Source: a virus. From it: DNA of 64,000 nucleotides. Shown piece after piece: positions 7,159 to 13,813 of this stretch (positions within the stretch are counted from its first letter, which is position 1; each line of letters opens with the position of its first letter). The position numbers and the translations under genes are program-made. The stretch spans positions 1 to 64,000 of the IMG/VR virus record IMGVR_UViG_3300020172_001405; one strand, given 5' to 3'. The notes beneath the pieces are model-generated. The model had not been told where the DNA came from, did not search any database, and was given only the letters and a program-made list of their open reading frames with translations.

Positions 7159-7707
7159 ATGACTACTCAGTCATTGTTCGACCAGTCCGTAGTGGCTGCT
7201 GCTAATGTCCGTGGTGCTCGTGGCGAGGAGCGTGAAATTGAGCGCCTTGCTAATGAGGCTATTGCCAATGGGTGGGGTGCTCCTATCCCTGCCAGTATCT
7301 ACAGCGACCTCGCTGTAGTTGCCAAGAAGGATGGAACCGAAGTGGTGGAAGTATCACCCCTTCAGTTTGCCCACGCCTTCTACTTGGTTCGTACCTACGG
7401 GTACAAGCCTCGTGACGCCCGCCGTATCGCCAAGCGATTCGGTATGGAGTTGGATGGTGTGTATACATCCGACACAGCACAGGTGGTTCGTGCCATCACC
7501 GCTATGGAAGAGCAATTCGTTGACGATAAGGAATCAGTCCTTATCCCAACCAGCATTGCTGCTATCAAGTCCCGTGTCGCTACGCTTAAGAAGCGTATGA
7601 AAGACGGGGCTGTATCGGATGCCGACCTTCAACAGTTGGCATCTATAAGCGAAGAGATCCGTGATCTCTCCGTTGCCACCACCCCATCACTGGTGGTAAG
7701 CGCGTAA
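7159..7707 (+). CDS. Hypothetical protein, first gene of plus-strand block
   Basis: SD AAGGA, 182 aa, flanked by hairpin arrays. Confidence 0.75.
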   Translation: MTTQSLFDQSVVAAANVRGARGEEREIERLANEAIANGWGAPIPASIYSDLAVVAKKDGTEVVEVSPLQFAHAFYLVRTYGYKPRDARRIAKRFGMELDGVYTSDTAQVVRAITAMEEQFVDDKESVLIPTSIAAIKSRVATLKKRMKDGAVSDADLQQLASISEEIRDLSVATTPSLVVSA

Positions 7708-8077
7708 TACTCTAGGCTACTGCCCCCCTAGCCGTACAGCCTGCGTCAGTCCGACCAGGTTATCGGCTAGGGGGTGTGGCTGTTATCAGGGTATTAGGGG
7801 AAGTCAAGGGCTTAGCCAATAGTCCTTGGCCTCTCAACTCTACACGGTACAACCTTCCCCGTACCGTGTGGGGCTGAGGGGTTCATACCCCTACATCTGA
7901 AGATACGGCGATACCTGTGGGAATCAGGAGACTGTTAGGCAATCCCGAAGTACACCCTAACCGCTAATGGCACGAAGATAACTACTCTGTTCTGCCTTCC
8001 ACAATGGGGGGTGGGTATGCCTATGTGTACCAACACAAACCGTATGCCTGCCCCCCATTTCTCCACCCAGTTAGTCC

Positions 8078-8180
8078 GTGAAAGGCGCATCTGTTCGTCT
8101 ATAGGGAGGGTCCTTATAGGTATTGAGTGCTTTCAGCAGGTGCGCCTCTCACTCTCTACCTGAGAGTATTAACTAGGAGG
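8078..8180 (+). promoter_or_regulatory. Structured leader motif, copy 1
   Basis: GTGA-A-11-bp stem...C-TCAC, 6-bp hairpin, then AWTAACTAGGAGG; covaries with copy 2. Confidence 0.7.
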
Positions 8181-8185
8181 TTGCT

Positions 8186-8413
8186 ATGTCAGCAAAAACA
8201 AACGCCATCACAACAGACCTCACAATAGAGGTTATCAAGAAGTTACTGTCGTTAGAGGCTGCTGGACTCGCATCCAGTATCCTCTGGCAAGGCGAGAAGC
8301 CTTGCTCTCAATGCGGTAGCAAGTTGCACAGCAAGTATGAGCGTAATGCTGCTGCTTGGGTATGCGCGGGCTGTTACAACGAGTTCGCCTTAGAGATGGG
8401 ATGGGAAAAGTAA
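8186..8413 (+). CDS. Small CxxC...CxxC zinc-finger protein
   Basis: CSQC...CAGC; SD AGGAGG. Confidence 0.7.
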   Translation: MSAKTNAITTDLTIEVIKKLLSLEAAGLASSILWQGEKPCSQCGSKLHSKYERNAAAWVCAGCYNEFALEMGWEK

Positions 8414-8622
8414 TGGGAGCACCAGCTTGGTTCAAATTCAGGTGCGGTAACTGTAGCGCACCGAATGTAATGACCTACGCAACTACACCTCGTATCAACG
8501 AGGATCGCGTAGAGAAGGTATCTGATAACGGAGGCATCCGTGTATGGCGTTGCCGTTGTACAGAGTGCGGACATTCCACTATGTTCAATGAGCACATAGA
8601 TGGGAGAAAGGAAGCAGTATGA
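8413..8622 (+). CDS. Small zinc-ribbon protein
   Basis: CGNC...CTEC; TAATG coupling. Confidence 0.65.
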   Translation: MGAPAWFKFRCGNCSAPNVMTYATTPRINEDRVEKVSDNGGIRVWRCRCTECGHSTMFNEHIDGRKEAV

Positions 8623-8822
8623 ACTGTGTCCTCTGTGGTGCGCCAGTAGCACCAGACAGATGGGAGATAGGTAGAGATAAATGCCCACCGTGTGGCAGTA
8701 ACCTAGCCAACGAAGAAGTTGCCCAAGACTTTAGGCTTGTTCTTAATCCCAAGCAAGGCTTTGGCATTGTATACAAAGATTCCCCCGATCTTCTTAACGG
8801 GAAGTCATCAGGCAGACAGTGA
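8619..8822 (+). CDS. DksA/TraR-like C4 zinc-finger mini protein
   Basis: CVLCGAPVAPDRWEIGRDKCPPC resembles CxxCGxxIxxxRL...CxxC. Confidence 0.55.
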   Translation: MNCVLCGAPVAPDRWEIGRDKCPPCGSNLANEEVAQDFRLVLNPKQGFGIVYKDSPDLLNGKSSGRQ

Positions 8823-8904
8823 AAGATACATAGGTTGCGGAGTGCCCGCGTAAAGATAGTCCTGTGTATCTCTCACCCTCTATCTGAGGGTAATAACTAG
8901 GAGG
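8819..8904 (+). promoter_or_regulatory. Structured leader motif, copy 2
   Basis: Same architecture as 8078-8180 with six compensatory pair changes. Confidence 0.7.
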
Positions 8905-8910
8905 AATAAA

Positions 8911-9114
8911 ATGGAAAAAGAATGCGCAGTAATTCACTGCACCAATACCAATCTCGTGTACTCAGGTACTGATGCTCTTCAATTAGGCGGTATCCCCACC
9001 GAAAAGTATTGCCGTCCCTGTGCAATCGCTTACACAGTGATCAAAGAAGCAATGAAACCCCAATTGCCCCCTACCGCAGTGTCCCCTAATAGCACAGCGT
9101 CTACCTTTGCCTAA
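8911..9114 (+). CDS. Small Cys-rich hypothetical protein
   Basis: CAVIHC...CRPC; SD AGGAGG. Confidence 0.65.
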   Translation: MEKECAVIHCTNTNLVYSGTDALQLGGIPTEKYCRPCAIAYTVIKEAMKPQLPPTAVSPNSTASTFA

Positions 9115-9413
9115 TGGGCACCAACACAAACACGCCCACCTACGCCAACATCTGCGCCCGATTGCGCTATGTGCGACAACTCAAAGGGTGGACGCTTGAT
9201 GAAGCAGCAGCTAAGTCTAATGGCAAGCACAAAGCCAATGTAATCGGTTCCTATGAACGCGGACAGCGGTCAATCTCAGTCAGGAAACTGATTGAGTTGG
9301 CACGCCTGTACGATGTGCCTATTACCGAATTCTTTGGCATCCCCGACCAAAATGATAAGTCACAGGCTCTCATTGACCTGTTGATTGACCGACTACACGC
9401 ACAGAAGGGATAA
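9114..9413 (+). CDS. XRE-family HTH regulator resembling the BldD DNA-binding domain
   Basis: RLRYVRQLKGWTLDEAAAKSNGKHKANVIGSYERGQRSISVRKLIELARLYDVP matches the BldD N-domain pattern KSxGxxKAxVxGSYERGxR. Confidence 0.8.
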   Translation: MGTNTNTPTYANICARLRYVRQLKGWTLDEAAAKSNGKHKANVIGSYERGQRSISVRKLIELARLYDVPITEFFGIPDQNDKSQALIDLLIDRLHAQKG

Positions 9414-9415
9414 CA

Positions 9416-9646
9416 ATGGACAGACCAATACAGATTGGCAGAGATCAAGTCAATCATTACAACATCTCCACCATCTTTCTAGGTGAAGACTATCAACCAC
9501 GCCCATACGAGACTATGGTCTTTGAGAACGAGGTGTCTATTTACGAAGCACGCTATGAATCAGAGTGGGAAGCAAAGATTGGACATCTACACGCCATTTA
9601 TCTAGCGCGTAATGACAAGTTCCTTCCCCGCGAGTCGCGCTGCTAA
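9416..9646 (+). CDS. Hypothetical phage protein
   Basis: ISTIFLG...YETMVF...RYESEWEAKIGH, phage-type small protein. Confidence 0.65.
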   Translation: MDRPIQIGRDQVNHYNISTIFLGEDYQPRPYETMVFENEVSIYEARYESEWEAKIGHLHAIYLARNDKFLPRESRC

Positions 9647-9661
9647 TAGCGCGACAGTTTT

Positions 9662-9904
9662 AAATGGATAGAGGAAGGCAGAGATAGGGTCTGAGCATCT
9701 CTACCTGATTCTGCAAGCTGCGTTTCAGGTTCTCCGCCACGTATGTATACAAATGGAAAGTGAGTCCTGTGGGTAAATGTTAAGAGAGAATGTGCCTGCT
9801 TGTGCGTGTTAGTCCATGAGAAGGTTACGCAATGCATTGCGTCTACTTCTTTGATACGTGAAACCGATTCGTTACAGCCTATCTCTGTCTTCCCCTGCCC
9901 ATTT
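9662..9904 (+). ncRNA. Putative structured ncRNA E1 (243 nt, 27-position closing helix)
   Basis: 9662-9688 pairs with 9878-9904 (2 mismatches); no credible plus-strand gene inside. Confidence 0.55.
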
Positions 9905-9929
9905 GGACAGGACAACAAGGGAGGGTAAA

Positions 9930-11345: not shown

Positions 11346-11419
11346 GCGCTGTTAGCTCAGTTGGTTAGAGCCCCGAACTCATAATTCGGTCGTCGTAGGT
11401 TCAAGTCCTACACAGCGCA
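11346..11419 (+). tRNA. tRNA with CAT anticodon (elongator Met or Ile2), no encoded CCA
   Basis: Acceptor GCGCTGT/ACAGCGC, D arm GCTC/GAGC, anticodon arm CCGAA-CTCATAA-TTCGG, T arm GTAGG-TTCAAGT-CCTAC. Confidence 0.93.
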
Positions 11420-13411: not shown

Positions 13412-13460
13412 TAAACACGGGAGTGGGAGTTACTAGGTAACGAAAAGTCCCCTCGTTTGC

Positions 13461-13745
13461 TTGAGGCACGGCAGAACGCAGTAGGTTTATTATTTAACCG
13501 CTATATTGCTGTAACCCAATAGAATTAGTATTATCACTGTGCGTTATGTGATCTTCTTGTTCAGCGACATACGAATAAAACGAAAGTGCACGCTAGCTAT
13601 AGCCAAAAAACGTTTTAATTTGTATAGGTACTGTCCGAAGATGGACGACAATACCACATAAGAAAATGTGAGGGTCCTAGATGTATATCGATGTGCATCG
13701 ACGCGTATATGTTCTATTCGATAAATAACTGTGTTCTGTTCTCAA
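13461..13745 (+). ncRNA. Putative structured ncRNA E3 (285 nt)
   Basis: GGCAGAACGCAGT (13470-13482) pairs with ACTGTGTTCTGTT (13728-13740), plus TTGAG/CTCAA. Confidence 0.45.
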
Positions 13746-13746
13746 A

Positions 13747-13792
13747 CCCTCAAGCCATAGCATGTCAGACTAACGGTGCTATGGCTTGAGGG
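13747..13792 (+). promoter_or_regulatory. Perfect 16-bp hairpin upstream of SD
   Basis: CCCTCAAGCCATAGCA/TGCTATGGCTTGAGGG. Confidence 0.6.
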
Positions 13793-13813
13793 CTCATAAC
13801 TATAGGAGGAAGC

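Follow-up and report, generated by a model that had tools for sequence, protein, structure and literature searches.

In the early region of phage T7, a promoter is followed by a processing site, the first gene and further processing sites between cistrons. In ribosomal RNA (rRNA) operons, long-range helices known as stalks flank the 16S and 23S sequences and are cut by RNase III; any interior is accepted, and conserved features are found only at the clamp. Here, we have analyzed a stretch of 64,000 nucleotides (nt) of viral DNA (hereafter the window; positions 1 to 64,000 of IMG/VR record IMGVR_UViG_3300020172_001405) and characterized a leader RNA element that occurs in it twice, at 8078-8180 and 8819-8904. 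The element is made up of a clamp (P1), a small hairpin (P2) and an upstream segment (alpha), and alpha can pair with the apical side of P2 to form a further helix (P0). On the basis of sequence comparison, it is a family of structured RNA that has not been described before; it lies outside every described family, and in kind it is a phage intercistronic structured RNA.

The T7 early RNase III signals and the rRNA processing stalks appear to be the closest functional analogues of this element. Like it, the T7 signals (R0.3, R1.1 and others) are stem-loops in the leader or between cistrons that end just before the next ribosome-binding site, comprise at least about two helical turns with an internal loop or mismatch, and are present as several diverged copies per operon. 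Unlike them, the element has an arbitrary apical insert of 26-175 nt, a P0 built to compete with a downstream hairpin and a near-invariant junction; the two were compared as predicted structures, share no sequence similarity, and the host of the element is probably an actinobacterium. With the rRNA stalks it has in common a long-range clamp with a free interior and a conservation confined to the clamp, but it is much smaller and is part of an mRNA leader, where a ribosome-binding site follows.

Two other phage systems are worth comparing. The put site of HK022 is a double hairpin of ~65 nt that acts in cis as a protein-independent RNA of the early operon; there are two copies, and the shape was originally backed by covariation between them (PMC8632103). 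The double hairpin of put arises during transcription and is required for the suppression of terminators farther along the early operon. In the present element, unlike put, the double hairpin is less stable, the spacing to the start codon is fixed and the interior of the first stem varies. Cluster K mycobacteriophages carry SAS, a 13-bp motif (GGGATAGGAGCCC) that contains the ribosome-binding site and lies a few nt before the start codons of some non-structural genes; there are 11-19 copies per genome, and about half of them are preceded by a 17-bp inverted repeat (ESAS) with a spacer of 4-13 bp, for which an mRNA hairpin was judged by the authors to have little support, departures in the repeats being uncompensated (PMC3203893). 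SAS/ESAS is the closest actinophage analogue, being likewise an actinophage motif that combines a ribosome-binding site with an inverted repeat of variable spacer. However, the element described here has a different consensus, only 2 copies in 101 kb and pervasive compensation.

An earlier note on this DNA, made from the sequence alone, had pointed out the duplicated motif, and both copies read as it described: GTGA and a single unpaired A lead into the first 11-nt arm, the insert and the complementary arm, after which come the C facing that A, TCAC, the 6-bp hairpin (loop TAYCT) and A(T/A)TAACTAGGAGG (Table 1). It can also be read directly from the sequence, as had been claimed, that the two stems differ at five pairs (3, 4, 5, 9 and 10) with pairing retained at all five, that pair 8 is U-G in both copies, that the A/C mismatch is common to both, and that the small hairpin has one further swap (T-A to C-G). 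The clamp was recovered in both copies by single-sequence folding, and a 33-nt block shared by their 3' parts has exactly two occurrences, in the window as in the full genome of 101,464 bp (0 of 100 shuffles matched). The hairpin is separated from the start codon by 18-19 nt. Small Cys-rich genes do follow both copies, namely open reading frame (ORF) 8186-8413 (75 amino acids) after copy 1 and ORF 8911-9114 (67 amino acids) after copy 2; the former shows only a weak, sub-threshold match to a Zn-ribbon. Two of the described features had to be refined: inner hairpins are present in both copies but are not homologous between them, and the 6-bp hairpin exists but is only one of two competing structures. 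The alpha segment and a decayed third copy (copy 0, ~7780-7845) are additions to that description.

Table 1. Positions of the parts of the element in the window
Feature	Position and sequence	Strand	Remarks
Copy 1, alpha (CAGTTAG)	8068..8074	+	can pair with CTACCTG 8156-8162 (P0), broken by a U/C mismatch
Copy 1, clamp P1	8078..8152	+	sequence, folding, covariation
Copy 1, base	GTGA 8078-8081 with TCAC 8149-8152	+	mismatch A8082/C8148
Copy 1, arms	5' AGGCGCATCTG 8083-8093; 3' CAGGTGCGCCT 8137-8147	+	stem of 11-13 bp as 8083-8095 with 8135-8147
Copy 1, insert	39 nt enclosed by P1	+	contains a 10-bp hairpin
Copy 1, P2 (ACTCTC-TACCT-GAGAGT)	8151-8167	+	apical part 8156-8162 = alpha', partner of alpha
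Copy 1, ribosome-binding site	ATTAACTAGGAGG 8168-8180; Shine-Dalgarno GGAGG 8176-8180; ATG 8186	+	
Copy 2, alpha (TCAGGCAGA)	8808..8816	+	pairs with TCTATCTGA 8879-8887, one C/A mismatch
Copy 2, clamp P1	8819..8876	+	sequence, folding, covariation
Copy 2, base	GTGA 8819-8822 with TCAC 8873-8876	+	mismatch A8823/C8872; TGA = stop codon of upstream ORF
Copy 2, arms	AGATACATAGG 8824-8834; CCTGTGTATCT 8861-8871	+	11-bp stem
Copy 2, insert	26 nt enclosed by P1	+	contains a 5-bp hairpin
Copy 2, P2 (ACCCTC-TATCT-GAGGGT)	8875-8891	+	
Copy 2, ribosome-binding site	AATAACTAGGAGG 8892-8904; Shine-Dalgarno GGAGG 8900-8904; ATG 8911	+	
Decayed copy 0	7780..7845	+	CTGTTATCAGGGTATTAG-GGGGA-AGTCAAGG..CCTTGGCCT-C-TCAAC-TCTAC; from alignments

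To place the element among known RNAs, databases and sequence collections were searched. Nothing similar to positions 7700-9500 of the window was found in GenBank phages. When the whole window was compared with Rfam 15 at gathering thresholds, the only match was a tRNA at 11346-11419, and at E<=5 the region 7600-9200 gave three chance-level matches only, all outside the element; this agrees with the statement in the earlier note that the family was not recognized. Relatives were obtained through a neighbouring protein (two close relatives), by pattern scans of viral and metagenome contigs and with a covariance model, the search that had been proposed as a check. Altogether, ~38 distinct copies were identified, spread over ~25 contigs from freshwater phages of ~100 kb, each genome carrying one or two. 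The first copy of most relatives stands directly after a conserved non-coding leader (..CCAGGTYT-N20-CTGTTATCAGGTAG), which itself comes after a terminator. In an alignment of 34 copies, 95% of the helix cells pair and 15 pairs are changed on both sides, a result that no shuffle reaches. Together with a G-U pattern that fits the + strand only, these homologues bear out the earlier suggestion that the covariation reflects selection on RNA structure.

The clamp is a real helix: all 418 cells form standard pairs in a set of 22 copies, and 99.8% are paired in the 34 copies, in which 10 of the 15 P1 pairs are changed on both sides (controls slid out of register reached 31-68%). Even the 4-bp base covaries in distant copies (GTAA/TTAC, GTGG/CCAC and ATGG/TCAT), and the conserved mismatch is mostly A/C, sometimes C/C or U/C, and replaced by a U-A pair in two distant copies. 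P1 contains 46 G-U cells versus one C-A cell, and the covariance model scores 65-83 bits on the + strand versus 28-37 bits on the reverse. Thus, the RNA corresponds to the + (coding) strand. Between its arms, the clamp encloses 26 to ~175 nt, and these interiors belong to several unrelated families, with nothing common to all. Compared with the window, one relative has the stem modules of its two copies swapped, and the hairpin modules stay with their genes; such shuffling of stem and hairpin modules between phages suggests that the function is generic and not gene-specific.

Some regularities within the interiors were also observed. One insert family, consisting of a covarying hairpin with a GGAGGG loop followed by AUUGAGUGCU, is kept across phages that have different clamp stems (for example, window 8096-8134, L004:7685-7718 and L087, minus strand), and other families (CAGACUGAGGCUCG.., ACUUAAACG..) are common to several phages. 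The clamp interiors may serve separate functions. In L051, L087 and L090 (second copy), a further hairpin (GTTGC...GCGTAAAGATARTC) lies after P2 and before the start codon and resembles the insert of copy 2 in the window (8835-8860), and this module appears to move between positions.

P2 is also maintained by compensation. Its variants include ACTCTC-TAYCT-GAGAGT, ACCCTC-TATCT-GAGGGT, ACTCTC-TATCTG-GAGAGT and ACTATCT-ATCA/ATCT-AGATAGT, as well as ACTCTTC-ACAA-GAAGAGT, ACTCTCC-ACAA-GGAGAGT and ACTCCCT-ATGA-GGGGAGT; in all, there are six compensating stem variants with stems of 6-7 bp and loops of 4-6 nt, the loop not being invariant, and one copy has an unrelated 7-bp hairpin in the place of P2. 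Since the stem changes compensate and the spacing shifts by one base, an RNA hairpin fits these data better than a dimeric operator. Alpha, a segment of 7-9 nt located 2-3 nt upstream of GTGR, is complementary to the last stem base of P2, its loop and the first bases of its 3' strand. This pairing, P0, covaries as well (CAGGTAG/CTACCTG, CAGATAG/CTATCTG and, via G-U, CAGGTAG/CTATCTG), and in copies with an ACAA loop it becomes TGTGAAG with CTTCACA. One P0 pair is GU in 19 copies, AU in 6 and GC in 5, with no A-C. Over the 34 copies P0 is 87% paired, some rows being one column out of register; shuffling of alpha gave p<=0.05 in 25 of them, and exchanging alpha between types lowered the score from 7-8 to 3-4.5. 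P0 is thus real at the level of the family.

P0 extends P1 outward across an internal loop of 2x2 to 3x3 and is incompatible with full P2. The resulting P0+P1 rod has 26-30 base-pair steps; when minimal constructs of the 34 copies were folded, it was the minimum-energy structure in 33 of them, with an advantage of 2-12 kcal/mol relative to the P2 state. Counted upward from the foot of the rod, the conserved mismatch is reached after 12-18 steps (mode 14-15) and is followed by at least 11 bp, and the Shine-Dalgarno sequence is unpaired in both the rod and the P2 state. When an RNA cut at the mismatch was modelled, P2 (-5.6 to -9.9 kcal/mol) formed 0-4 nt from the new 5' end, and the Shine-Dalgarno sequence was largely open save for a weak 3-bp pairing of the 5' CUC with GAG.

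The position of the element relative to genes is similarly constrained. It occupies the entire gap from a stop codon or an operon leader to the next ribosome-binding site, and P2 ends 14-20 nt before the start codon in ~35 of 38 copies, the remaining three having an additional hairpin there. The majority of copies come first in the operon and have no ORF that reaches into alpha; in copy-2-type elements, alpha lies within the last codons of the upstream gene, and GTGA supplies the stop codon (TGA) of that gene. Downstream, at least seven different genes are found, including several kinds of small Cys-rich proteins, an XRE-type regulator and a small membrane protein. In the window, ORF 8619-8822 ends in ..K S S G R Q stop (8805-8822), and these codons are the same bases as alpha and the clamp base of copy 2, so that protein and RNA constraints overlap there. 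A near-identical string (TTATCAGGTAGNNNGTGR) was seen in the non-coding first copies of relatives.

Two other intergenic gaps of the operon, unrelated in sequence to the element, were compared with it and share its design, E3 in part. The gap E1 (9663-9905) folds into a comparable rod of alpha plus clamp with an unrelated sequence: AAATGG...GGAAGGCAGAGATAGG pairs with CCTATCTCTGTCTTCC...CCATTT, CCATTT can alternatively enter a small hairpin before the ribosome-binding site, and the stem resembles the P1 consensus (GGAAGGCA..ATAGG). In the gap E3 (13460-13800), the 3' strand of the 17-bp hairpin that follows the clamp recurs before the clamp as GCTTGAGG, which gives the same three-strand complementarity, but the large hairpin is retained.

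The phage record is complete in IMG/VR (101,464 bp, 43.5% G+C), and its 'terminal repeat' is only 93 bp. The genome encodes a baseplate J protein, a family A DNA polymerase, a class II ribonucleotide reductase, an SNF2 helicase and three WhiB proteins, and the presence of the latter indicates, as far as gene content can tell, an actinobacterial host. No sigma-70 (region 2) gene was found in the genome, and a genome search for a T7-type RNA polymerase gave nothing, the control search being uninformative (no signal from the control). The element opens a rightward block of small genes that follows a divergent region adjoining an Hsp20 gene. Copy 1 is preceded by ~370 nt of non-coding DNA after ORF 7159-7707, and copy 2 starts at the stop codon of ORF 8619-8822. 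The XRE-type regulator of the operon is located at 9114-9413, and a strong intrinsic terminator-like site is present at 9634-9655, downstream of both copies, with more genes on the same strand beyond it.

The non-coding region before copy 1 (7708-8077) is near-identical in the window and in relatives L003 and L004 despite differing flanking genes and clamp stems. It holds several hairpins, one of which (-37 kcal/mol, ~8017-8058) has a loop with CAACACAAAC, is followed by ATTTCT and lies 16 nt upstream of copy 1; this stem may represent an independent small RNA or, alternatively, a terminator at which the upstream RNA would end once it has been processed. Copy 0 is found in the same region, directly after the conserved CCAGGT..CTGTTATCAGGTAG leader, where relatives have their first intact copy. 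It was undetected by the covariance model R1, and ~230 nt of highly conserved non-coding sequence connect it to copy 1.

Several candidate features near the element were considered and not retained. In copy 1 only, upstream CUCCACC and AGUUAGU (8063-8075) can pair with AUUAACU-AGGAGG (8168-8180), giving a three-way junction that sequesters the Shine-Dalgarno sequence and is the minimum-energy fold when flanks are included; it was set aside, as the pairing is lost in relatives with different spacers. A CCCCGC..TTTT tract before second copies was examined as a terminator tail and rejected, having no 5' partner in relatives and no recurrence in the genome of the window. CCCCGCGAAATTTTACCGTGTG, a conserved tract after the upstream stop codon and ~25 nt upstream of GTGG in the second copies of L088, L083, L044 and L107, lacks a complementary 5' partner and is thus not a hairpin terminator; it is absent from the genome of the window except for a related CCCCCCATTT at 8051. 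Likenesses of UCACCCUCUAUCU to the 3' tail of 16S rRNA and of the hairpin to lambdoid boxB, noticed by eye only, were dropped because the loop varies in distant copies. Two matches in actinobacterial (Thermoleophilia) metagenome-assembled genomes (72% GC; L234:3958-3979 and L235:2346-2367; block TCTCACCCTCTACCTGAGGGTA) share a non-coding context without the clamp and are probably unrelated; since ~2 chance matches are expected in the genome-contig collection, they give no host assignment.

What might such an element do? The helices P0, P1 and P2, their covariation and mutual exclusivity, the rod geometry and the gene context are observations. As a tentative explanation, somewhat short of an even chance, we propose that the element is a cis-acting processing cassette of the RNase III type on the + strand of the early operon. 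From 5' to 3' the cassette would comprise alpha, a spacer of 2-3 nt, P1 around an arbitrary interior, P2, the Shine-Dalgarno sequence and the start codon. In the intact transcript, alpha would hold the apical half of P2, and P0, the internal loop and P1 would form a quasi-continuous rod whose mismatch is close to the middle. An endonuclease specific for double strands, most likely the host RNase III, would then cut the rod near the mismatch and separate the upstream RNA from the downstream cistron. With alpha gone, the 3' strand set free by the cut would fold into P2. This hairpin, now near the 5' terminus and immediately outside the ribosome-binding site, could protect the mRNA from 5'-end-dependent decay. 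We infer the cleavage, the enzyme, the cut position and the stabilizing effect as parts of this model.

The processing model has the merit of accounting for features that otherwise seem odd. P2 is kept by compensation even though it is disfavoured in the intact RNA, which makes sense if P2 forms only after the removal of alpha, and a cut near the rod centre would account both for this and for the position of the mismatch. It is known that 5'-terminal stem-loops stabilize messages against RNase E or RNase J. Substrates of RNase III typically have two helical turns (22 bp when idealized), to which coaxial stacks count, and a loop or mismatch at the target confines the cut to a single strand, leaving protective hairpins behind (PMC3867540, PMC1540722). 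In 33 of 34 copies, the rod reaches this length of two turns as the minimum-energy fold, and near its centre are found the conserved A/C (or C/C, U/C) mismatch, U-A in two distant copies, and the internal loop of 2x2 to 3x3. The gene context, the exchange of modules between phages and the comparable rod of E1 also speak for the model, and the arrangement of the operon agrees with that of the T7 early region.

Several points weigh against this proposal. With just one to two copies in ~100 kb of genome, the element is scarcer than a general intercistronic signal might be expected to be, although different clamps are found in other gaps. RNase III has little positive sequence specificity and thus leaves unexplained the near-invariant junction (GUGR-A...CU-C-UCAC-U and AGUA), whose conservation hints at a sequence-specific reader. 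Moreover, the rules on inhibitory base pairs in the proximal and distal boxes of RNase III substrates were defined for E. coli in relation to a known cut site, and the host here is indicated to be an actinobacterium. Finally, P0 has a central mismatch in the window copies, where the rod is only 1.3-2.2 kcal/mol better than the P2 state; for copy 1, the alpha shuffle gave p = 0.69 and the advantage of the rod is 1.3 kcal/mol, and by the shuffle test P0 is indistinguishable from chance in the window copies. P0 is weak in the window and rests on the family.

A different explanation, which we consider rather unlikely but consistent with much of the same evidence, is an RNA switch that is not cleaved: P0 and P2 would be two states toggled by a terminating ribosome or by a sequence-specific protein or small RNA that binds the invariant junction, thereby setting translation or decay of the downstream cistron in the manner of a translational operator or a coupling device. 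The two helices are indeed mutually exclusive and both conserved, the junction (GUGR-A / CU-C-UCAC-U, AGUA) is conserved far beyond the needs of pairing, and the end of P2 14-20 nt before the start codon coincides with the 5' edge of the ribosome footprint. A terminating ribosome must melt P0 in copy-2-type elements, since alpha there coincides with the last codons of the upstream gene and the clamp base includes its stop codon. However, most copies are first in the operon and have no ORF into alpha, and the Shine-Dalgarno sequence is free in both states, so that no direct translational gate is visible. The variety of downstream genes argues against autoregulation. As for a small RNA acting in trans, no complementary RNA was found elsewhere in the genome, in which the only 12-nt complement of the invariant block, at 99710, lies in a coding region and is probably due to chance. 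The double hairpin of the P1+P2 state also recalls the ~65-nt put sites (PMC8632103), and a leader that binds the host RNA polymerase for processive antitermination of the HK022 kind would suit an element that is present once or twice per genome, at the beginning of the early operon or close to it, with read-through of terminators such as the strong one at 9634-9655, beyond which same-strand genes continue. This is nevertheless improbable, considering that alpha is transcribed first and the more stable rod disfavours the double hairpin by 2-12 kcal/mol in 33 of 34 copies; the tight spacing of 14-20 nt to the start codon would be unexpected for an antiterminator, the length of the P1 interior is variable (26-175 nt), and there is neither sequence resemblance to put nor an Rfam match.

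It is very doubtful that the element works at the DNA level, as an operator for the XRE-type regulator (9114-9413), a promoter or a recombination site whose palindromes would be protein half-sites. The small hairpin is a perfect 6-5-6 palindrome adjoining a helix-turn-helix (HTH) gene, the conserved 24-nt block is comparable in size to phage promoters, and modules do recombine at the conserved block. On the other hand, the ratio of 46 G-U to one C-A cell in P1 reveals pairing of one strand, the reverse strand scores less than half, and the palindrome varies in spacing, with stems of 6-7 bp around loops of 4, 5 or 6 nt, a variability poorly compatible with dimeric operators. No fitting sigma-70-like hexamers are present, a sigma-70 promoter scan near the element gave nothing above shuffles, no sigma factor gene was found in the genome, and the conserved upstream blocks (GGCTACTG, CCAGGTYT and CTGTTATCAGGTAG) have no common RNA fold and no consistent -10/-35. 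A metabolite or metal riboswitch (for example, for Zn) that controls the Cys-rich genes is close to excluded. It would explain a structured leader before Cys-rich, probably zinc-binding, proteins. However, the sole enclosed region, the clamp interior, is not homologous across copies and measures 26-175 nt, which excludes a ligand pocket and argues that the element is not a riboswitch; conserved nucleotides sit in regular helices, no expression platform occludes the Shine-Dalgarno sequence, there is no terminator, and an HTH regulator and a membrane protein are among the downstream genes. Probing with Zn or nucleotides as ligands, as once suggested, is poorly suited to this RNA because that interior is the only possible pocket; the RNase III assay suggested alongside it does suit the findings.

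If the processing cassette is taken as the basis, a broader and more speculative idea, which we regard as possible though doubtful, is that of a self-capping module: the rod would hold P2 inactive as part of one of its strands, the cut that frees the cistron would also trigger refolding into a protective 5' cap hairpin, and the excised clamp, with its conserved insert families (one of them with the GGAGGG loop), could be released as a small RNA. Such a release may be likened to the trimming of primary microRNA. The same logic would apply to E1 and partly to E3, and might then be a general design rule of the early mRNAs of these actinophages.

Taken together, our data describe a new, well-supported RNA family with three covarying helices, two of which compete, in uncultured freshwater actinophages, a group of which almost nothing is known with regard to gene regulation. 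Should the processing model fail, the near-invariant junction would point to a sequence-specific RNA-binding factor of the phage or the host. If processing and refolding hold true, the module could be used as an insulator or stabilizer part in actinobacterial expression systems, and in these phages the maturation of mRNA would be coupled to the protection of its 5' end within one compact, portable module placed before different genes.

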